Under the pieces are notes generated by a model. It was not told the DNA's origin. It made no database searches and saw nothing but the letters and a program-made list of their open reading frames with translations. Of a stretch of 64,000 bases of DNA, positions 30,181 to 61,865 are shown in pieces (the stretch's first letter is position 1; every line of letters starts with the position of its first letter). A program made the position numbers and the translations under genes. Source of the stretch: Octopus vulgaris (taxonomy: Eukaryota); contig OX597822.1 of NCBI GenBank assembly GCA_951406725.2, forward strand, positions 57,970,001 through 58,034,000, in the 5' to 3' direction.

Positions 30181-31370
30181 TAGTAACGTACAGGGATCTT
30201 TTCCTTTTGATGGACGGAATTCAACACAATTTCTAGTTAACTAAACAATTTGAAACTTTGTATACTGGTAGAATGTGTCAAAATAAACATTATTTTCACT
30301 TGGCTTTTTTGAGAAAATTGTAATTTATAAGTTTAACGTAGTTTAATTCTTTGAATTTTAACCAATGAATTGCCAGCATTTGAGCTCAAATCATTTGCTG
30401 CGTCTAAAAACTCAGACAACATCCTGTTGCAACGTAAACAGCACATACACACACACACGTGTTATACATCCTTCTCTCTTCTGTCTGTCTCGCTCATCGA
30501 TATTGATAAACAAAGGAGGCATGTGCTAGAAATAACAGCCATATCTCTTAAATCGATGAATTTCGTTGCCCAATAAAAATATTGACGATATTTTTTTAAT
30601 ATTTTCTTTATTTTTTTTTACCGAAAAGGCTTCTCCCATGGTTTTGAAGGGCCAAAAACAACAAAAACAAAATAATAATATGCCTAAATCAGTCTAGAGT
30701 GGGATATGAGGGTGCGCGTGGAGTGTGGGTCGTATTGTAAAAATTTGCGAAATATTTTTTCATAAAAGGATGCCCCAGCTTGTCGGAGGCTGTGATATAA
30801 ATTGGGAAAAAAATCCTTAATACCAGTGCGTAATTGGTACTTAATTTATCGACCCTGAAACGATGAAACATTGATCCAATTCTACCGACACCAGTGTGAA
30901 CTCACGAACATGTATGTGTGCTTGTGTGCGTATGTGTGTGTATGTATATCTCCGTTTGTATGTGTGTACGCTTATATATTAATTACTATGTGCTTGTGCA
31001 AAATGTATATGCATGTGTGGGAGAGAGAGAGAGAGAGTGACAGAGAGTGTGTGTGTGTGTGTGCAAGTGTACGTGTGTATGTATCTGAATATATGTGTGT
31101 GTGTGTATGCGGCATGTGTCTCCTCGTTTGTTTATCAATATCGATAACGCAGCAAATGATTTGAGCTCAAATGCTGGCAATTCATTGGTTAAAATTCGAA
31201 GAATTAAACTACGTTAAACTTACAAATTACAATTTTCTCAAAAAAGCCAAATGCAAATACTGTTTTCTTTTGACACATTCTACCAGTATACAAAGTTTCA
31301 AATTGTTTAGTTAACTAGAAATTGTGTTGAATTCCGTCCATCAAAAGGAAAAGATCCCTGTACATTACTA
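30181..31370. mobile_element. Non-autonomous DNA transposon with long (about 220 bp) terminal inverted repeats
   Basis: TAGTAACGTACAGGGATCTTTTCC...TGAGCTCAAATCATTTGCTGCG (30181-30402) is mirrored at 31148-31370; no coding capacity. Confidence 0.88.
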
Positions 31371-36947: not shown

Positions 36948-37367
36948 TCTACTATAATAATACTCGTGTTTATGAATGAGAAAAAAAGGGGTGATAGATG
37001 ACTAAGGAAGGAAGGGGTGATGTCATACTTGGTAGTGGGATGCTGAAAATTGTACGCTGATAATAATAAATCAAACAGCATTTCAACTGTGTGAATATAT
37101 GTGTATGTAAAGGGGGTGTATGTGAATATGCGTGTGTATGCATACACAATGGAAATGGGATGGTTCATCTTTGGGTTTATTTTTTGATTTGGTTGAATCA
37201 TGATTGTATTTTTTTTGTTGGTCAGTTATTTTTAGCGTTTTGACAGAAAAAAGTAATTCTAAAATTGCTTTTTAACATAAGCATGTCCAAACAAGTCGAA
37301 TGCTTACACAGAGCAGGTTTTACAACCACATCCAAACTGACCAGGTGAAACTGGGCTTAGCTGCTAC
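36948..37367 (+). mobile_element. Non-autonomous Helitron whose 3' end seeds the adjacent tandem array
   Basis: A|TCTACTATAATAATA start; CCAGGTGAAACTGG hairpin followed by CTAC (CTAG in array copies 2, 5 and 6). Confidence 0.65.
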
Positions 37368-38629
37368 TATATATATAACATTTTTTCAAATATACTTGGT
37401 GCAGTCACAATATTTAAAGAAAGATTTTTTAAACGTTAAGTATTTAGCCTGTGGAGGCGCGGGGCTTAGTGGTTAGGGTGTCAGCATCATGATCATAAGA
37501 TTGTGGTTTAAACAAGTCGAATGCTTACACAGAGCAGGTTTTACAACCACATCATCCAAACTGACCAGGTGAAACTGGGCTTAGCTGCTAGTATATATAT
37601 AACATTTTTGCAAATATACTTGATGCAGTCACAATATTTAAAGAAAGATTTTTTAAACGTTAAGTATTTAGCCTGTGGAGGCGCGGGGCTTAGTGGTTAG
37701 GGTGTCAGCATCATGATCGTAAGATTGTGGTTTAAACAAGTCGAATGCTTACACAGAGCAGGTTTTACAACCACATCATCCAAACTGACCAGGTGAAACT
37801 GGGCTTAGCTGCTACTATATATATAACATTTTTGCAAATATACTTGATGCAGTCACAATATTTAAAGAAAGATTTTTTAAACGTTAAGTATTTAGCCTGT
37901 GGAGGCTCGTGGCTTAGTGGTTAGGGTGTCAGCATCATGATCGTAAGATTGTGGTTTAAACAAGTCGAATGCTTACACAGAGCAGGTTTTACAACCACAT
38001 CATCCAAACTGACCAGGTGAAACTGGGCTTAGCTGCTACTATATATATAACATTTTTGCAAATATACTTGATGCAGTCACAATATTTAAAGAAAGATTTT
38101 TTAAATGTTAAGTATTTAGCCTGTGGAGGCGCGGGGCTTAGTGGTTAGGGTGTCAGCATCATGATCGTAAGATTGTGGTTTAAACAAGTCGAATGCTTAT
38201 ACAGAGCAGGTTTTACAACCACATCATCCAGACTGACCAGGTGAAACTGGGCTTAGCTGCTAGTATATATATAACATTTTTGCAAATATACTTGATGCAG
38301 TCACAATATTTAAAGAAAGATTTTTTAAACGTTAAGTATTTAGCCTGTGGAGGCTCGTGGCTTAGTGGTTAGGGTGTCAGCATCATGATTGTAAGATTGT
38401 GGTTTAAACAAGTCGAATGCTTATACAGAGCAGGTTTTACAACCACATCATCCAAACTGACCAGGTGAAACTAGGCTTAGCTGCTAGTATATATATAACA
38501 TTTTTGCAAATATACTTGATGCAGTCACAATATTTAAAGAAAGATTTTTTAAACGTTAAGTATTTAGCCTGTGGAGGCGCGTGGCTTAGTGGTTAGGGTG
38601 TCAGCATCATGATCGTAAGATTGTGGTTT
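37289..38629 (+). repeat. Tandem array, 6 x 224 bp (first unit 221 bp)
   Basis: Units start AAACAAGTCGAATGC at 37289, 37510, 37734, 37958, 38182 and 38406, and are nearly identical. Confidence 0.97.
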
Positions 38630-38830
38630 CGATTCCTAGACTGGGCAACACGTTGTGTTCTTGAGCAAAACACTTCATTTCACGTTGCTCCAGTCCACTC
38701 AGCTGGCAAAAATGAGTAACGCTGCGATAGACTGGCATCCTGTCCAGCTGCGGAATACATACACCACTGAAACTGGGAAACCGGGCCCATGAGCCTGGCT
38801 AGGCTTTAAAAGGACGCATTTATTTATTTA
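38573..38830 (+). mobile_element. tRNA-derived SINE, complete copy at the array end
   Basis: A box TGGCTTAGTGG, B box GGTTTCGATTCC, CORE-like TTGTGTTCTTGAGCAAAACACTT, (TTTA)n tail. Confidence 0.8.
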
Positions 38831-46742: not shown

Positions 46743-47730
<988 letters not shown>

Positions 47731-49389: not shown

Positions 49390-50489
49390 TCCGTAGTCTA
49401 TGAACTTTTTAAATATATATTTTTTCTTTCAAATTACATAAACGTGACACATTAAATAAAAAACAGAAACGAAGTATTTATTATTTATATCAAGAATATA
49501 ATTGCTTACAAAATTGCTTTTTTATACGAAATAAAAAACCAAATCGTGCACCACGTGTGCTGGATAACTAATAGATAGTTGGTCATAAGGTAAATGCACT
49601 AAGAAGGAATGAACAAAACACTTTAAAAATACAGAAACAAAAAAGAAACCTTATGCATTTTCAAATAAAAGAAAATAATTTTAATATTAAACAAAAATTT
49701 AGTTGACGTTCACTTCAGAAATGCCGCCGTCGAATTGCAAACTAGTGTAATATTGACGGTTTTCAACTGAACAATTTTTAAAGGGCGATTAATTTGTATG
49801 CCGTCATTTCGATGTATACAGCCGTCAGTAACAATCGAAAATCGAGTATGGCTTTGTATCATTGGTGGTGGTTAATACGTGTATATATACATATATGTAT
49901 TTACACACATCAGCAGGCACTATGCCTTTCATTCATGTTTTCTCGGTACCTACGTAGAAGAAAGTAAATACAGAAACATTACCATATATACACACACCCA
50001 CTCTCGCAATTGACTTATTGGAACGTCCAAGGAGTCACAGATGAAAAGAGAGAGAGTGAGTGAAAGTTGTATGTCAGCAACTGACAAGTGCTTTATTTAC
50101 TTATTTTTTTCGGCGCCAGGAAGATAAACAATAAAGTTGACCATCGCAAACTTTGAATCAGAACACTTACCACAAGGCATAAACGTAATAATAAACTAAA
50201 GGAAACGTTAATATATTTACAAACACACACACTATGTATGTATGTATGTATGTATGTCAAACGACGGAAGAGCTCAGGAACAGTCAATGGCCATCAAACA
50301 ATATATGTACAAGTGTAAGTATGCATGTATGTAGGCGCGGGGACGTGGAAATACCTGCGTAGGTGTCCAGGCATGCGGTTGGCCCACTGGTAGTGGGAGG
50401 CCCTTCTATTGTCAAAACATCTCCCTTGGTGAGGGAAACTCTGAGAAACCAGTGATACTGAAAATATTCGATGATGTAGATTAAATTCC

Positions 50490-51560
50490 ATCACACTCCA
50501 GGGGAAGAAACTAGAAGTAGTTGGTAGTTTCCGCTACCTAGGTGACCAAGTTAGTAGTGGAGGTAGATGCTCAGAGATTGTCACCACTAGAATACGAATA
50601 GCCTGGGCAAAGTTTAGAAAGCTCCTACCCCTATGGGTGACAAAGGGTCTCTCAGTTAGAGTGAAAGGTAGATTGTATGATGCATGCGTGCGAACCGCCA
50701 TGCTTCACGGTAGTGAAACATGGGCTGTGACTGCAGAGGACATGCGTAGACTTGAAAGAAATGAAGCTAGCATGATCCGCTGGATGTGTAATGTCAGTGT
50801 GCACACACAACAGAGTGTAAGCGCCCTGAGAGAAATGCTGGACATAAGAAGCATCAGATGTGGTGTGCAAGAGAGATGTTCGCGCTGGTATGGTCATGTA
50901 CTGCGGATGGATGAGGAGAGATGTGTGAAGAAGTGCCACTCCCAATCAGTTGAAGGTATCAGGGGGAGAGGTAGACCCAGGAAGACATAGGATGAGGTAG
51001 TCAAGCATGACCTTTGAACATTGGCCTCACAGAGGCAATGACGAAAGACTGAGATCTCTGGAGATATGCTGTGACTGCAAAGACCCGGGCTGCTTCCTGC
51101 ACCAGTTTTGCATAGCCCCAGCCCATCCAAAGTTCCTTGGATTGCAGATCGACCTACTGTGCTTACCTTGGATCGTAGGGAGACCTGCTGTGCTTGAGGA
51201 GACCTATTGAGTTAAGTACATCAATATCAAAATAAATATCAATGGAAATTGTAGTTACGATACCTGTGTCGACGGCACGTAAAAAGCACCATCTGAACGT
51301 GGCCGATGCCAGCACCGCCTTGACTGGCTTCTGTGATGGTAGCACGTAAAAGGCACCAACCGATCGTGGCCACTGCCAGCCTCCTCTGGCACCCACTACA
51401 CTCATGGAGTGGTTGGCGTTAAGAAGGGCATCCAGCTGTAGAAACACTGCCAGATCAGACTGGAGCCTGGTGCAGCCTCTTGGCTTCCCAGACCCTGGTC
51501 GAACCGTTCAACCTGTGCTAGCACGGAAAATGGACGTTAAACAATGATGATGATGATGAT
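50490..51560 (+). mobile_element. 5'-truncated RTE LINE
   Basis: FRYLG and HGSETW..RGRGRPRKT (ORF 50637-50990), 3' UTR, (TGA)n tail. Confidence 0.92.
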
Positions 51561-52041: not shown

Positions 52042-52476
52042 GAAAGATTTTTCTGCAAAATATGGATAGTTGATCCTGCTCATGCTATATTATTAGCATT
52101 ATCCTGTGTTTGAGAATAGAATTATTTCCTTATCTGTATCTTTTGATACATCTCAACGCTTCTAAAGCAAACTTTGTTTGTTGACTTTCAATATATATAT
52201 ATATTATATATATATATATATAAATATAGATAAATGGATATATATATATATAATATATATATATATACAAAATAAGAAAATGGAGAAACACATCTTAATC
52301 AATGATCAACTACCAGATAATACCCAATCACATAATTTATTAAACCACGACATATGAACATTAAGGTCAAACATAATAATATAGAACAAAACAATGTACA
52401 TGAAAGAGTAATATGATACAATAAGTACAGTATGTATAAGTGAATATAAATAAATACAAATATAAATATAAACTAC

Positions 52477-52603
52477 ATCTTACAGCTGTTTTGGCCATGC
52501 AGATATGGGTGTCTCATTATGCTCATATTAGCCATGTGTGATAGGTCAATATGTAGTTATAAATGAGACACTTACAAAAATATCCCAAGGCCTCTTCAGA
52601 GAT
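52477..52603 (-). ncRNA. Decayed type I hammerhead ribozyme (G12 mutated)
   Basis: Minus strand: ATCT CTGAAGA GGCC..GGCC AAAAC AGCT GTA AGAT. Confidence 0.75.
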
Positions 52604-53167
52604 TATGAAATACAAACTAAATTAAATATGAATATCAGATGAGGTACACCCATACAAGAGTGGGTACATACCCATAATATATAATATACACATACATATG
52701 AGTGCATATACCCATACTCCTATACATATATATATACATATACATAATAATATAAATCAATCTACATACATATGTTCTATATTCAATGTTACAGTTGGTC
52801 AACATAATATTATGATATTACAATGTAGAAAATATACACATATTCATATTCAAATGCAGATATACAAAGTCAAGAGTACATTATATTAAGTTACAAAATG
52901 TCATTAATATTAACAACATTACTATTATCATTACCACTATTACTACTAATATCATTATTATTATTATTAATAACATTAATACCAGCAAAACAATATATGC
53001 ATCACACGGTTAGCAACATAATAGCAAGAACAACAACAACAATAATACTACAGTACTATGCAAAGCATTAAAGATCAGCATATACATATAAAATGAAAAA
53101 TAAAAACATTGGTTTACATGATATTAAGTTCCACAAGTGTATAAATGTACATGCGAGTGCAGGCCAT

Positions 53168-53577
53168 AAGAAAAGAAAATGGAGGTAAGGAAGTTAAAAA
53201 TTATTTATTATTAACAAATTGGTCATCTTGTCTTCTTACAGCCGTTTCAATTAATACTCAAAAATTCAATTACAAATTTGTACATTAAATTTACATTTAT
53301 GTACCATTAGTGTAATTTCATTAGAGAAAGAAAAAGATGTACCTGTGGATGTTATATGTGGGCCTTTCAATTCATCTCACCAGGCTCTGATAGGCCCACG
53401 TATATAATTCCAAAGGTACTGCTTTGTTTTTTCTCTGAAGAAATTGTACTCTTGTCATGTAAATATAAATTTAATGTACAAATTTGTAATTAAATTATTG
53501 AGTATTAATTGAAATGGCTGCAAGAAGTGAAGATGACCAATTTGTTAATTCTTAATTTCCTTATTTCCATTTTCTTT
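53168..53577. mobile_element. Fold-back element with a hammerhead motif in each arm (53233-53328 minus, 53431-53526 plus)
   Basis: Imperfect inverted arms of about 190 bp. Arms read TTCT CTAATGA AATT..AATT GAAAC GGCT GTA AGAA and TTCT CTGAAGA AATT..AATT GAAAT GGCT GCA AGAA. Confidence 0.8.
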
Positions 53578-53599
53578 TTTTTTAAATGGATATCTAAAC

Positions 53600-53968
53600 T
53601 GAGTGGCTGTGTGGTAAGAAGCTTACTTCCCAACCACATGGTTCCAAGTTCAGTCCTACTGCGTGGTACCTTGGGCAAGTGTCTTCTGCTATAGCCTTGA
53701 GCTGAGCAAAGCATTGTGAGTGGATTTGGTAGATGGAAACTGAAAGAAGCCCGTCGTATATATATCTATATGTATATATATGTCTGTGTTTGTTTCCCCA
53801 CCATCGCTTGACAACCAATGCTGGTGTGTCTCCGTTCCTGTCACTTAGTGGTTCGGCAAAAAGAACTGATAGAAAAAATACTAGGCTTACAAAGTCCTGG
53901 GGTCGATTTTATTTGACTAAAGGTGGTGCTCCAGCATGACCACAGTCAAATGACTGAAACAAGTAAGA
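53600..53968 (+). mobile_element. CORE-type SINE, near full length
   Basis: GAGTGGCTGTGTGGTAAGAAGCTT head through to the CAAATGACTGAAACAAGTAAG tail. Confidence 0.85.
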
Positions 53969-53978
53969 GGGTATATAC

Positions 53979-54472
53979 CTATCATTGTAGAAATTTGGCA
54001 AAGAAATGAATTTTCAGGATGTAGCCTGGAGGATTTTTTCGTATTAATCGTTTGGACTTTGTGAACACATACCAATTGTTTTCATAACATTTTTAACGCT
54101 TTGAATTAAATGTGACCATTTTGCGTTGAGTCTGCAGTTTGAATCACTTTAACCAAATTTTAGCAGGCCAGATTTTTGATCATCATGATACATCGCCAGC
54201 GACTCCCTGAAACTCTCCCCTGAAATCCCCGTTGAGAAATACTGATCTAAAAGAATAATTCAACAATGCAATTATTTGATCGATACAAATTTATGAAATG
54301 CTTCTACATACTTCCTATTGAGGAAATGGAACACATAAGCGCAAAAATAGAGGGCATTAAATGCTTGATTTTAAAACCAAAATAATTGAATTTTGATTGA
54401 ACTTCATCCAAGTTTAGCTTAATTCGCACATGCATAGAACGCACGAGCGCACAAGCTGGGCAATACTGCTAG
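53979..54472 (+). mobile_element. Deleted Helitron copy, same family as 33772-35003, opposite orientation
   Basis: 53985-54448 is the reverse complement of about 34221-34687; ends GGGCAATACTGCTAG|T. Confidence 0.85.
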
Positions 54473-54665
54473 TATATATATATATATATGTATATAAATA
54501 CATATCATCATCATCCTCATCAGCATTTAACATCCTTCTTCCATGCTAGCATGAGCTGGACAGTTCGACAGGAGCTGGCCAGGCAGAAGCCTACATCATA
54601 CTTCTGTCTGTTTTGGCATGGTTTTTACAGCTGCATGCCTTTCCTAACAACAACCACACCATAGA

Positions 54666-54704
<39 letters not shown>

Positions 54705-55357
54705 TGTGTCTGTAACAAATAGCTTCCTAGATTCTAAGCCAAGAAGTGAAACCAATTCAACATTTTTTTTTACCAGTTCCTTTCCTATTGTTCTTGGCCT
54801 TTGCACTTAGAAATTTATGAGAGTCAACTGTCACATTTAGTTTGGTTCTATTGTTTAAGTTAACATTCTTAGATTAAATAGGGTCCAGGTAGATAAGAGA
54901 CAGAAAATCCTTTGTCTAGCCTGACCTAATTTAGTTAGAAAAAAATATAAATACAGAACTCAGAATCAGTTCTATTTCTTTTGTCACTTGGCACCAAACA
55001 AAAGAGCATCTATTTTTCACTTATGGATTGTCATCACACAACAATACAACTTTCACCCTATCAACTTGTCAGCTCAGAGAGGTAGATATTTCTTACTTTT
55101 TCCACCAGTCTTCTAGCAGTCAACAAAATATAAATTAGACTACCTACAGGATGGATATCAGTACTGTGAATAATCAATGTACTATAATTTGAAGAAATGA
55201 TATTTTAGATTGTAATGATGAAAATAAGGGACCATTTCAACCAATTAATATTTTTCTTCCTCTCATTATCCTTTTATGTATATATATATATATATATATA
55301 CACACACATGTGTGTTTGTGTATGTATATATATACACACGTTTACATACATATACAG

Positions 55358-56880
55358 CATCATCATCATTTAACGTCTGTTGTCCCATGCTGGCATAGGT
55401 TGGACAGTTTGACCAGGGCTGGTAAACTGAGGAGCTGTACCAGATTCCAATCTGATTTGGCATGGTTTCTAAAGCTGGATGCCCTTTCTGATGCCAACCA
55501 CTCCAAGACTGTATTGGGTGCTTTTTTGTGCCACTGGCACAGGTGCTGGTTGCGTCACAACAATATCTGTCACAGCCATGATTTCACTTGGCTTGATGGG
55601 TCTTCTTCTCAAGCAGGGCATATTGCCTAAGCTTTCAATCATTTGTCATTTCTTCCATTAGGCCCAAGGCTCAAAAAGTGATTTTACATTCCACGAGCAG
55701 AGGTGCCAGGTATGCAACACTGGCATTGGCCACAACTACGATTTCACTTAGCTTGACAAGTGTTCTCAAGCATGGCAAATTGCCAAAGGTCTTGGTCACT
55801 AGTCATTGCCTCCATGAGGCCCAACGTTCGAAGGTCATGCTTCCCCATCTTGCCCTGTGTCTTCCTGGGTCTACCTCTTCCATAGGTTCTCTCCACAGTT
55901 AGAGATAGGCACTTCTTTACACAGCTGTCCTCATCCATATGCATCACATGACCATACCAGCGCAGCTGTCTCTCTTGCACACCATATCTGATGCCTCTTA
56001 TGCCCAGTTTTTCTCTCAAGATGCTTACACTCTGTTGTACATGCACACTGACTTTGCACATCCAGTGAAGCATGCTAGCTTCATTTCTTTCAAGCTTTGA
56101 AGCTTATGCATGTCCTTGGTGGCCACAGCCCATGTTTCACTGCCGTGTAGCACAGCTGTTTGTACACAGGTATCATGCAGTCTGCTTTTCACTCTGAGGT
56201 AGGAGCTCTCTAAACTTTGCCCAGCCTATTCTTATTCTTGCAGTTATGCCCTTAGAGCATCCACCTCTGCTATTGACTTGGTCATCTAGATAACAGAAAC
56301 TATCAACTACCTCTAGTTTACCCCACTGGCATTTGATGGAGTTTATTTTTCGGTACACTTTTAGTATTTATGGAACTTTTATACCTTCAACACACAAATC
56401 TATTTTCCCAATTAACCTTCCTCTGATATTGCTGCACCTCTTATCTGTCTATAGCTTACACTGGGTACAGCTTATGGAATTTCTGCCTACGCCCTTCCTA
56501 CAGATTGATCAGGGTCATCTGCCTGAAGAGATTTATGATTTGTCTTCCTTCCTACTTACTAACACTTTGGTTTTTGCTAGGTTAACTCTAAGGCCCTTCG
56601 ATTCTAGATCTTGTTTCCACACCTGAAACTTCTTCTGTAGTTCTGGTAGTGATTCAGCTATGACAACAATGCCATCAGCTCCCAGGAACAGCCCAACTTA
56701 AATTCCTCTGTTATTGTCTGGAGGACTATGATGAACAAGAGGAGGCTGAGGGCTGATACTTGGTGAACCCCTACTTGTACTCTGAATTCATCACTATACT
56801 TGTTGCCAACCCTCACCTTACTGACAGTATTGCTGTACATGGCTTGTATGGCTCTCACCAACCTCTTGTCTATCCCTATG
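55358..56880 (-). mobile_element. Degraded RTE LINE
   Basis: ORFs 56658-56861, 56173-56358 and 55744-56073 are RT and C-terminal pieces; (CAT)n tail near 55358. Confidence 0.92.
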
Positions 56881-57248
56881 GAACACTGAGGAATTCCTGA
56901 GGTAGATCAAGTGACAATTGTGTAAATATCATAGTTGATGTCAGGTACCCATAGGCAGTGAACATGCTTCACTGGCTAACTACTAGGTATATGTATAATA
57001 AGTACTAGGTACTTATTACACACACACACACACACACACACTTTTAATGCACAATATATGCATTTATCTATTCTGGTGATATTCACAAAAAATTTCCTTT
57101 AATGGACCAGGCTACAAACCATATAGTAAACTAATACTTAGGAGTATAATGTAGTGTCTTATGCAGTTGAAATCCTTTAGCTCCGATCAGTGATGATTAT
57201 TTCATGAGAAGTTTATAGAATACAAAGAAAGTTCGGAGATATGAGATA

Positions 57249-57743
57249 ATATCCATAGGTTGATGGCCATTTCTCAGCCAACATCATGCAAAAATAATTT
57301 ATTTTATTGTATAATAAATCATTGTACATATCTGCACTCGTGTGTATGTTATAAATTGCATAGCACTATTGTAAATTTTACAAATGAATGCAGATACAGA
57401 AGGCTAGCTCATCTGATCAATAGAATATCATAGTTTACATTATTAATTATATATTTCTAAACACTCTAAAGATTAGTTTAACTGATTAGTTTTCCTTCTG
57501 ATAAATTTTCTTTGCATTTTATGTACTTTATATAGATTGGTACTCTGAACTACCATACTAATTCTATTGTTCTTACTCAATATTCTTCTCTTTCATTCTA
57601 GTTTAACTTTCATTTTGTTTCTCTTTTTGTTCATACTACTCTCTATATCTCATAAACACAATATTTAAAAACTTCTCTCTAATTCCTTTATACTTTTACT
57701 TTCTTTTCTTTCTCTCCCTTATTAATGCCTCTAATTTATTAAT

Positions 57744-57826
<83 letters not shown>

Positions 57827-58186
57827 AGTATACATCAATTTCACATTCATCACCACTACCCATTGTTTCCTTTTTAATATCTTGCTAAATCTTCTTGCCT
57901 CCCCTTTATAGCAATTTTATTGTGAATTATTGTCTTCCATACATTAACATTTTGAAGGTAATTTGTTTTTGCATGTGTATACTGCAGTTGAAAAATTGAT
58001 GTAACCACAATATTCTATTGATCTGAAGAGCTAGCCTTCTGTATCTGCATTCATTTGTAAAATTTACAATAGTACTATGCAATTTATAGCATACACACTA
58101 GTGTAGATATGTAAAATGATTTATTATGCATTAAAATTATTTTTGCATGATATTGGCTGTGAAATGGCCATCATCCTATGGATATC
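57249..58186. mobile_element. Inverted-repeat element (arms of about 180 bp around (CT)n) with a hammerhead motif in each arm
   Basis: 57249-57428 mirrors 58010-58186. Plus arm reads GAT CTGAAGA GCTAGCC..GGCTGT GAAAT GGCC ATC ATC. Confidence 0.75.
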
Positions 58187-59469
58187 AATTGGTGAAATAA
58201 ATACATTCATCTCAAACCATCTGATTTTCTTTATATGCACACACACATACGTGTGTGTGTGCACACACATATACATACCTAAATATATTTATACACACAC
58301 ACAATTACTCCTGCACCACCATACATCTCTCACTATTGCCATCTCATCTTTCTCTTGACCTTTATCAGTATCACTATTCTCCATCTCGTCACTCCCATGC
58401 ATCATGGGACTCCCACCTCACCTAATCTACCATTTTTAATACTTGTTATTCATGCATTATATTCACACATATCCTTAGCCATTCCCATCTCTTTCTCTTT
58501 CCCTACCGTACACTCTTGCAACCTCTATCCGCCTTCATTCTCTCTTCACTCGCTTTTACTCACCTAATACTTTGAGGATTCACCCAGACACCTCACCCTT
58601 GCTATTATTATCTCAATGATACCCACTCTCCCTTCAAAAATGTGAATGACCATGTAGCTCCTGCAGAGCAAGAAACCTGTTCTACCCTGGCCTTTTCTCA
58701 CATACTTTAACCTTCATTTCCTAGCATAAAGTTGCCTCCCTTGGGAATCATAGACCTGCAAATTGTATGGTGACCTCACTAGTGCTGGTTTTATGAAAAA
58801 GTACCTAGTACATGCTGTAAAGTGATTGGCATTAGTAAGGGCATCCAGCTGTAAAAAACGATACCAAAGTAGAAAATGGAACACAATGCAGTCCAATCCA
58901 TGCTAGCATGATACATAGGAACTAAACAATGATGATGGTGGTGATGGTTATGATGATGATGATGATACACTCACACACACCTCCCTTCCTGGCTCCCATC
59001 TGCTCACCACCACTGTTTGTAGGTGCTTATCCATGAAATCTTTTGGGAATGAAGGAAATTTTAATTCATGAAGTTGCAAATACATGGACTCACTTCAGCT
59101 TGGCAGGTACTCACAAAAATCGTATTCCCAGATGATGAATACAGTCTCCAAACTACACACTCACTCTTCCCAATTCCACATGATCAATGTCGACACAATG
59201 CCAGAGTGGGGGTATGTAGATGAGTGCAAGAAGTAGGATGGAGGGGAACCTCAGTTAAACTGCTCATGAGCAGGTAACAGAGATGCAATTTTACTCGATG
59301 GGCAGCAGTGATGAGGTGGGTAGTGTATGTATAGTTTTGGCTGAGAAATGGGTTGATAATTGATTGAAGAAGTCAATGTGTATGATTGGATTGTTAAGAT
59401 AAGACTAGTCTGGATAATATCAGAGTGGCAATAATCTCTGCATATGCTCCACATGCAGTTTCAGTGAGT

Positions 59470-59700
59470 CCCTTTTGCAGTTTACCTCAATGATGGAAAA
59501 CAATGACCTTATTTTGGGGGCTGATAACTTCAGCAGACATGTCGGACAGTGTTCCAATGGATTTCATAGCAGTTATAGCTTTGGTGCTAGAAATGAGGAG
59601 GAAACAAGACTGCTAGAATTCTGTCATCCAATGATTGTTGAACAGCAACATAACCGCCAGGAAACCAACAAGTCACTTAATCACCTAACAGTCTGGTAGG
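59470..59700 (+). mobile_element. RTE AP-endonuclease fragment
   Basis: LILGADNFSRHVG..SFGARNEE..RLLEFC. Confidence 0.7.
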
Positions 59701-59899
59701 CACTTATTTTCCCATCTGCTCTTCCACACTTCCTCTTAACACTTCTCATATCTATTATCATTCACCGCACCCTCTCACATCCGCAACTACACCAACTTGT
59801 TATAGCTACCCTTATACAAATATATTACATTGTTTTGAAATTCCCAACTATGTTTTGGATAAGTAGTGTTGTATGAAATGTTAAGAACAGAATAGTAAA

Positions 59900-60430
59900 T
59901 TTAAGGCTTTCTAAATCACAGAGATATGATATACCATTATTAGAAATACATTTTTGAAGTCAATATTATTTTCTTTGGATCAATTTGTATTCCAGCATTT
60001 CAATATTGCATTACTCATCAAAGATCTTCTATTTCCTCGCCAACTAATGGAGAGGATATTTTCATTCAAACCTCTCATTGAATATTGTGAAGAGTCCTAT
60101 TGATTAATAACGATCTTATGAAACAATCACCTAATGTATTACAACATAATAGAAATATAATTTCATCCGTAGATGCTTTGAATTTGTTATTGATTTTGTT
60201 CTTGATATAAATATTTCCTTTGGCCTTTTCTTTCTTCCAGTATAGACCAGTTTCATCAGTATTAGATATTTTTTCTAATGATTAGGACACTTTCTTGATT
60301 GTTTCAGTTAATGGTGACAAATCCTCCAACAGTTTTTGCATAACTTGAACTACTTTTGCCAAGCAGTTCGATATTTTGAAGAAATATTATAATAAATTAG
60401 ATTCTTGGTTTTCACATTGTAACCTTTTAA
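59900..60430 (-). mobile_element. Ancient Tigger/pogo transposase remnant
   Basis: Minus strand near 60235-60270 translates to ISNTDETGLYWKK. Confidence 0.55.
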
Positions 60431-60438
60431 TAAGTTTA

Positions 60439-60471
<33 letters not shown>

Positions 60472-60677
60472 GTTTTATGTTCAGTTACAATAAAGACAAT
60501 TTTACATTAATGTGATGGGGTACTCTATACTTTTGTAGAGTACAAATTTATTATTCTTTCACAAGAATGTTGTTGACAGTGACTTTGAAGTTTTGGCCAG
60601 CTAAGTCATTGTCAGATTGCAAAATGACTTTGCTGGTCGAAACTTCAAAGTCACAATCAACAACATTCTTGAATAAG

Positions 60678-60711
<34 letters not shown>

Positions 60712-60712
<1 letters not shown>

Positions 60713-61812
60713 TATAGGAAAGAATGGAGTTGAACGAAGATTTAACAAGATTCCTTTATTTTATTTTCGACATATGTTTCGAAGTCTGCAAAATTCCTAA
60801 TTCCGAATGAATAAGGAGTCCATTATGCAGCTTTCTCATCAGGAAAATCCGGGAACTTCTTTCGGCAACAAAATGCACAAGTTTTTAGATGACTGCTCTC
60901 GAGGAGCCCATAGTGATAATGAAAAATAGTGTCTATTTATAGGGGGTGACGTCAGATTGGTTGAATGTAGGAGAAACTGGCAGTTACTAGAGTTCAAGGG
61001 TTCAATCGAGGTTGGAGGAGGAAGGTAAAAGAATATTAAGGTGAGGGAATGTATTCCGTTTGACTGGTGTTTATATTTGATTTATTTTATGAATGAGTGC
61101 TCGTATATGTGTGAGTGTGTATAATTGTCTTAATGTGTGTGTCTGTGAATGCGTGATTGTGTGTGTAGAAGGCTGACAGAAAATTAACAGTCAGGAGGTG
61201 AAAGGACTGTGTCTGTGTGTTCGAATGTGTCAACTTAAGAAGGAGTGGGCAGAGAAAGCCCACAATAGTAGTGACAAGAGACCAGGGGACAACTGGAATT
61301 GGTAGCAGCTCTTAGAAATTATGAGAAAATCTTATAAACTAAAGGGATGAGATATCACAAATTAATTTTGTAGGAAATCCAGGGGTTACCTATATTAGAC
61401 TTCATTGGTATGAGTGAAAGGTGTGCTTTTTCCAGTGTAAACATCTGAAAGATCTCTCGACAATCGAATTTATTACGTGGCCTCGGGCAAACAGAATATG
61501 AAAAAGTTCGGAATTACAGAGGGCACAGATTTTTCTGCCCTTATCAAACGGTAAGGACACAGCCAATATTGACCATTCCAGCGTAAAAGTTGAATTTGTG
61601 TTCTTCAAACGCCAGACTAATTTGCTTAGCCCTGTGGTGTGCTGTTTACTCTTATCTCTGAACGTGGAAAAATGGTTGGAGACCCTTGTGGCTAATTTAG
61701 AAGAGGTTGCGCCAAGGTATCGGTTATCTTTCGGTTATCTACCCAGGTATCGGTTATCTACCCAGGTAACGGTTATCTTTCGAATTATCCGTAATAAGAT
61801 AATTTGTTTATC
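60712..61812 (-). mobile_element. 5'-truncated Penelope-like element (endonuclease C-terminus and pseudo-LTR) inserted in (TA)n
   Basis: ORF 61402-61608 (FTLEWSILA..PF..GRKICALCNSELFHILF) resembles the PLE GIY-YIG C-terminus; hammerhead downstream; (TA)n on both sides. Confidence 0.82.
60763..60848 (-). ncRNA. Type I hammerhead ribozyme with an intact core
   Basis: Minus strand: ATTTTC CTGATGA GAAAGCTGCA..TGCAGACTTC GAAAC ATAT GTC GAAAAT. Stem I has 6 bp, stem II starts G-C, stem III is the palindrome CATATG, and the triplet is GUC. Confidence 0.88.
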
Positions 61813-61814
61813 TA

Positions 61815-61865
<51 letters not shown>

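Follow-up and report, generated by a model that had tools for sequence, protein, structure and literature searches.

A stretch of 64,000 nucleotides of the Octopus vulgaris genome (assembly GCA_951406725.2, contig OX597822.1, positions 57,970,001 to 58,034,000 of the forward strand; hereafter the window) contains six motifs which, at a probability of roughly 0.85, are type I hammerhead folds located in the 3' ends (pseudo-long terminal repeats, pLTRs) of several Hydra-type families of Penelope-like elements (PLEs), preserved there as 5'-truncated and mostly mutated copies. We traced families A and D directly to their parent elements and family B through overlapping loci, and such a parent is likely for family C; self-cleavage is predicted from fold and sequence. 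An earlier note on this DNA had reported the six motifs and assigned them to four families of dissimilar sequence; all six were found, and no alignable common sequence beyond ~10 nt joins families A-D. The six motifs amount to four insertion events, B and C each being one inverted pair, and a fifth, short-stem family (E), absent from the earlier note, lies beside them. The motifs, with coordinates running from C3 to H17, are:

52481..52599, minus strand: hammerhead A; stem II region of 100 nt, stem III ACAGCTGT; G12A, predicted dead
53237..53324, minus strand: hammerhead B copy 1; stem II region of 69 nt; G5A, predicted dead
53435..53522, plus strand: hammerhead B copy 2; stem II region of 69 nt; U16.1C, predicted impaired
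57262..57415, minus strand: hammerhead C copy 1; stem II region of 135 nt; U4A and a broken stem I
58023..58172, plus strand: hammerhead C copy 2; branched stem II region of 131 nt, core intact, stem III ATGGCCAT
60769..60842, minus strand: hammerhead D; stem II region of 55 nt, core intact, stem III ACATATGT

The common design ascribed to these motifs in the earlier note held for the long stem II (55-135 nt), for the palindromic stem III and, at the level of family majorities, for the core; it did not hold for the single copies, since only two of the six (C at 58023 and D) have the full core and four carry a core substitution. The stem III sequences TGGCCA (C) and CGGCTG (B) are likely CpG-decay forms, the column majority of C being CGGCCG and a similar origin being probable for B. 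The window copies are mostly dead remnants with no apparent host function. Rfam misses all window hammerheads (E<=10), its matches being microsatellite noise only. Our strict hammerhead descriptor gave one match in the window and none in any of 20 locally dinucleotide-shuffled versions. When a single core mismatch was tolerated, it gave four matches against a shuffle mean of 1.15, one of the four lying outside the cluster and probably due to chance; degenerate single copies therefore prove little alone.

The case for hammerheads is carried by the families. First-look genome candidates, which are not copy numbers, amounted to 1026 (A), 682 (B), 359 (C), 2165 (D) and 387 (E), and the 30 best loci per family were used, a sample biased towards the window copy. 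Among these, the core was intact in 20 (A), 22 (B), 14 (C), 28 (D) and 2 (E) copies; the low figure for E arises because its copies are mostly truncated inside the motif or carry U4C. The mean divergence from the family majority was 1.5% (A), 5.3% (B), 10.7% (C), 1.0% (D) and 8.8% (E). As the earlier note had proposed to check, the majorities of A-D are intact: CUGANGA, GAAA and UH occur in type I order in these majorities and in subfamilies, and the hammerhead core is invariant across subfamilies. Furthermore, a strict descriptor was run over 332 fetched loci, a partly overlapping set of 1.30 Mb in which PLE sites are over-represented. It yielded 139 matches, 91 of them distinct, in 19 clusters, against none in each of four shuffles, so that the shuffle check also favoured the motifs. 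Family C escaped this descriptor. Among the 15 unbaited clusters, the stem II region measured 40-81 nt in seven and 14-29 nt in eight. The seven with 40-81 nt (L006, L258, L310, L123, L220, L188 and L299) are further hammerhead clusters with a palindromic stem III.

Linkage to genes for reverse transcriptase (RT) and endonuclease (EN) was followed upstream of each family. The insertions in the window, including their untranslated regions (UTRs), are:

52268..53169, minus strand: family A; 5'-truncated 3' end of a PLE assigned by motif to the Hydra clade, with part of the ~2 kb 3' UTR, hammerhead and short 3' end, then (TA)n; limits set by BLAST comparison with genomic copies
53168..53597, unstranded: family B; two 5'-truncated 3' ends in head-to-head inverted orientation, adjoining the 5' break of A
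57040..57435, minus strand: family C left arm, carrying the long 3' end (tail)
57436..58236, plus strand: family C right arm; upstream part AT-rich, then hammerhead and short 3' end
60473..60681, unstranded: family E; fold-back inverted pair of PLE 3' ends, hammerhead stem II of 14 nt, both copies mutated
60709..61715, minus strand: family D; 5'-truncated Hydra-like PLE with EN fragment, 3' UTR, hammerhead and short 3' end
61402..61734, minus strand: D endonuclease fragment; C-terminal GIY-YIG-type, with YLGAT and CxxC..E..N..CxH
61716..61818, plus strand: D inverted short piece, with the long 3' end (tail) and (TA)n behind it

The D endonuclease fragment ends 560 nt upstream of the D hammerhead, within the window, and is 93% identical to the EN of a copy (L151) that also has an RT. 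For family D, a protein search found 150 places, many with open frames of 800-930 aa, and several of 20 extended D-group loci have a hammerhead both before and after the open reading frame (ORF), with periods of 3624-3683 nt and one head-to-tail array. For family A, the upstream walk crosses ~2 kb of AT- and microsatellite-rich UTR and reached an EN in five of 30 loci; further upstream, beyond the EN, it found a CxCX5C linker and then an RT. Sister subfamilies of A have ORFs of up to 960 aa with IRWR, DKT, CxCX5C, VYIG and CxxC..E..N..CxH, and a tandem period of 5573-5579 nt. Full-length relatives in the A and D groups have open ORFs of 891-960 aa and hammerheads in the 5' pLTR as well, and are laid out as pLTR with hammerhead, an ORF of ~900-960 aa (RT and C-terminal GIY-YIG), UTR, and a second pLTR with hammerhead, some of them standing in head-to-tail arrays with periods of 3.6 or 5.6 kb. 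Four upstream walks from B gave a chain of overlapping segments: L321 holds EN, B4, B35 and B3, L324 holds B35, B3, B2 and the hammerhead, and L384 and L385 carry the same EN family upstream of B4. The last of these walks returned mostly microsatellite matches; three of its true matches were extended, and the EN is present in two of these. The resulting 3' UTR of B is ~2.3-2.5 kb long. In the ESM Atlas, the A-group protein sits among clusters with GIY-YIG, RVT_1 and HTH_animal families.

Several of the related elements appear young. A head-to-tail array of a D-group PLE (G000:C1:119511500-119528900; L303, L304) has an ORF of 899 aa, a period of ~3625 nt and many near-identical copies elsewhere, and was likely active recently. 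The sister group of A (L334, L335, L345) is a very abundant young Hydra family with ORFs of 955-960 aa, an 85-nt stem II and 5.57 kb units, and its EN query returned 19,232 first-look candidates. Another Hydra family with CxCX5C (L075, with EN and then the 3' end; L382, with RT) has a hammerhead with U4C in its core (CCGAAGA) and ~30 nt in its stem II region. Family E (window 60473-60681; L130, L144) has a short-stem hammerhead in which U4C is common, a tail of ~60 bp and an upstream frame ending in HPITKGLNT, a motif which we take to recall Neptune-type PLE endonucleases.

Assignment to the Hydra clade follows the motifs as defined in Craig et al. 2021 (PMC8557442). A single ORF with RT and GIY-YIG, as in EN-positive PLEs, was found at full length in the A and D groups, and for B the endonuclease was reached through the chain of loci, which yielded no RT. 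DKT stands in place of DKG together with an RWK-like motif (HSDKT and IRWR in the A group, QSDKT and IRWL in the D group), and the CxCX5C linker reads CNCRNRNQC in A and CDCKVKTNC in B. The endonucleases of A, B and D, read by eye, have no CCHH, and CxxC and CxH flank a conserved E and N. The (TA)n target is seen in the 3' flanks of short-ended A and D copies and is less clean in the older B and C. Family A thus has every Hydra-clade motif tested. The D RT is 49% identical to the A RT.

Stems I, II and III close the core, with 88% of cells paired in the D group and 91% in the A group; stem I has only 2-3 bp in the A group and in C. The folding z-scores of the stem II majorities were -3.8 (A), -4.4 (C) and -2.9 (D). 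In the D group (10 rows) eight of 29 pairs are compensatory (five in the basal part of stem II, one within stem III), and the compensatory cells exceed those of all 500 shuffles; in the A group (9 rows) four of 41 pairs are compensatory, the cell count being reached in 4/500 shuffles, and the inner helix has 93% of cells paired and two compensatory pairs. RNAalifold gave no usable structure on the decayed copies of C, and B too offered decayed copies only. Stem III is palindromic across subfamilies (CATATG, CATGTG, CACGTG). Its octamer self-duplex is favourable at -7 to -11 kcal/mol in five of the six copies (-4.1 in the plus-strand copy of B), and the monomer hairpin is unfavourable at +2.4 to +4.7 kcal/mol, which is consistent with the dimer model of Cervera and de la Pena (PMC4209133). 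Contigs from four sequencing runs presumed to be RNA showed no readable ends or circular junctions.

Several results weigh against assigning all six motifs to foldable hammerheads of Hydra-type PLEs. No single fetched locus of B spans both EN and hammerhead, and for C no ORF was found in the upstream walk (~250 nt of shared sequence beyond the query) or in five extended loci. A Pfam search with seven proteins gave no RT or GIY-YIG match, nor did a PDB sequence search; with Pfam blank, the identity of the domains rests on motifs and on the ESM Atlas neighbours. The CxCX5C linker that characterises the Hydra clade (PMC8557442) is absent from every D-group ORF listed, and D is for this reason named Hydra-like. 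The stem II of B folds weakly (z -1.0). As to covariation, the number of compensatory pairs is not above shuffles in either the D group (37/500) or the A group (70/500), and since the rows share ancestry and also supplied the structures, the compensatory changes are support and not proof. Finally, in the four motifs tested, the active monomer fold is less stable than the minimum by 2-10 kcal/mol.

How the long stem II is to be understood is a question within the PLE reading. We consider it possible, if rather doubtful, that it is a gained functional module (a site bound by the PLE protein, or a delay in folding so that the template stays uncut until reverse transcription) and not a tolerated expansion. 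In its favour, base pairs persist from subfamily to subfamily along the rod, the A-group inner helix included, long stems occur in four unrelated families and in seven of the 15 unbaited clusters, and one PLE hammerhead reportedly requires its protein (PMC11167929). Against it, length varies within groups (50, 85, 86 and 100 nt in A, 47-57 nt in D, the shortest being single copies), the lengths overall form a continuum of 14-135 nt, and no loop sequence is common to the families. Still more tentative is a wider proposal, namely a large radiation, still young, of Hydra-type PLEs in this genome whose hammerheads repeatedly gained a stem II of 40-135 nt as a protein-binding or folding switch, holding the ribozyme off until reverse transcription or dimerisation. 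If so, PLE hammerheads would be undercounted in animals, some "half-core" PLEs might hide such ribozymes, and the present families would offer a direct test of the role of the hammerhead in PLE transposition.

The anatomy of the insertions is that of PLEs. The 5' ends of copies are ragged and the 3' ends fall into two fixed classes, separated by ~175 bp (A), 130 bp (B), 180 bp (C), 165 bp (D) and 60 bp (E). Once six loci representing the second arm of an insertion already in the count had been removed, 144 remained, and for 65 of them an inverted partner could be scored within 1.5 kb; 58 of these pairs joined a long and a short end, five were short/short and two long/long. Long/short pairs occur in all five families (A 9/9, B 14/17, C 11/12, D 13/14, E 11/13), and their asymmetry is the Penelope "tail" signature, so that pLTR or tandem units, an inverted 5'-truncated copy and a one-sided tail of PLE type are all present. 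In full-length D-group copies the extension of the long end corresponds to the stretch that runs from the end of the pLTR to the start codon. The prevalence of one-long/one-short pairs (58/65) suggests that the two DNA strands were primed from different RNA start sites; a pair of internal RT start sites, as described for an Anolis PLE (PMC11167929), would explain the tail, which matches the one described by Craig et al. 2021. A CTCCATT-like word lies shortly before the short 3' end in A, B and D (window ~52280, 53180/53570 and 60725) and is a possible shared RT start signal.

The link to PLEs drawn in the earlier note was borne out for the hammerheads, and not for the class of element it proposed, that is, non-autonomous retrozyme-like elements: small non-coding units, forming circular RNAs and mobilised in trans by a PLE RT. 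That most copies are short and non-coding, that no ORF is linked to C and that retrozymes are reported to derive from PLE pLTRs (bioRxiv 10.64898/2026.07.22.740005) would fit such elements. We nevertheless regard them as improbable here, because none of 150 loci has a second copy on the same strand within 1.5 kb, short head-to-tail repeats thereby failing to appear, because published retrozymes are head-to-tail repeats of 150-450 bp (PMC7229834), and because the 5' ends are ragged and A, B and D trace to ORFs of coding elements. The retrozyme reading was accordingly rejected for A, B and D, non-autonomy being conceivable for C alone. A further rival, miniature inverted-repeat DNA transposons or else AT-rich hairpins that mimic a hammerhead by chance, which the inverted-repeat appearance of B and C and about one chance match per window of the relaxed descriptor might suggest, is highly improbable and was rejected, given inverted arms of unequal length, variable inner breakpoints, many copies without a partner, the strict descriptor counts, the invariant core and the RT and EN upstream.

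Nor did a clustered "system", as first envisaged, emerge; what we see are neighbouring insertions at shared TA- or AT-rich targets. The window cluster consists of five insertions at three sites, the 5' break of A abutting B, and D and E sharing one (TA)n tract (60681-60708) that lies between them; A too is followed by (TA)n. PLEs tend to insert beside earlier copies (review, PMC6765202). About 9.5 kb to the right of the window (L153:9306-9608), another D-group copy stands beside an E copy, repeating the D/E adjacency.

For the Hydra-type PLEs we propose the following course of events. The element protein would nick AT-rich DNA on both strands, and would start reverse transcription from two positions within the RNA, ~130-190 nt apart, the template being uncut at its hammerhead, as every copy retains at least 60-210 nt past the cut site. 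A single hammerhead would cleave poorly; cleavage would take place once two of them in a tandem transcript have paired through their palindromic stem III, and unit-length RNA would be released. The long stem II would be a selected rod, its base held and its apical length free. Repeated insertion beside earlier PLE ends and TA tracts would account for the local cluster.

Among known systems, the closest is the Hydra clade of PLEs with a C-terminal EN (Craig et al. 2021, PMC8557442), which includes Hydra-1_Obim of Octopus bimaculoides. It shares the RT with DKT, the C-terminal GIY-YIG, CxxC and CxH around E and N, CxCX5C (with A and B), (TA)n targets, a hammerhead near the 3' end, inverted 5'-truncated copies and a one-sided tail. 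The Hydra hammerheads listed there, however, have ~11-26 nt between the core halves (~22 in Hydra-1_Obim) against 55-135 nt here, the elements are "generally <3 kb" against 3.6-5.6 kb with UTRs of up to 2-2.5 kb, and the PLE tail is 30-40 bp, at one end only, against ~130-190 bp. The pLTR hammerheads of PLEs described by Cervera and de la Pena 2014 (PMC4209133) are alike in type I topology, short stem I, a palindromic helix III for which a dimer is predicted to be necessary, multiple sequence families in one genome and opposite-strand dual motifs 100-700 bp apart from truncated PLEs; their helix II has 6-8 bp, whereas here it is a long interrupted rod or branched domain. A precedent for a long stem II is PLE-X1_sMoe of spike moss (Craig 2021 File S2; region of ~53 nt, marked non-canonical), an EN-less, 28S rDNA-targeted plant element known as one family, with a stem II shorter than in A, B and C. 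Animal non-LTR retrozymes (Cervera and de la Pena 2020, PMC7229834) are alike in having a type I hammerhead, AT-richness and PLE association; they are non-coding repeats, in contrast to the dispersed, ragged 3' ends of coding elements seen here (C without a linked ORF). Poseidon PAc of Anolis (PMC11167929) resembles our families in AT-rich targets and, as far as we infer for ours, in two internal RT start sites giving a tail and an uncut RNA template; its ORF starts inside the hammerhead and its tail is short, whereas in our families the start codon follows the predicted cut site at a distance of 263 nt in the D group and ~513 nt in the A group.

Published work already covers pLTR hammerheads of PLEs, the palindromic stem III, pairs on opposite strands and Hydra elements in octopus. 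In full-text literature searches, which did not extend to Dfam/Repbase, we found no description of PLE hammerheads with a stem II of 55-135 nt or of cephalopod families of them, and the main text of an octopus repeat-annotation paper (PMC13282606) contains neither "hammerhead" nor "ribozyme". Relative to this literature, the long stem II with compensatory changes, the tails of ~130-190 bp and the 3' UTRs of 2-2.5 kb appear new. Since the motifs escape both Rfam and the 7-17 nt spacer of a published core search, they are probably under-represented in catalogues. For the question of what hammerheads contribute to PLE transposition (Craig 2021, PMC8557442; PMC11167929), the octopus families provide a natural length series of stem II (14-135 nt), young tandem copies with open ORFs and long, easily scored tails.

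Other repeats were noted in the window. A tandem array of six 224-bp units, 96-97% alike and without a hammerhead match, occupies 37322-38741. The stretches at 50475-50990 (plus strand) and 55744-56906 (minus strand) are presumably fragments of an RTE-like long interspersed nuclear element, and many copies of short interspersed nuclear elements are spread across the window. Finally, a near-perfect hairpin of ~45 bp at 47371-47486 and an inverted repeat pair, 94-98% alike, at 30181-31370 are possibly miniature inverted-repeat transposons.

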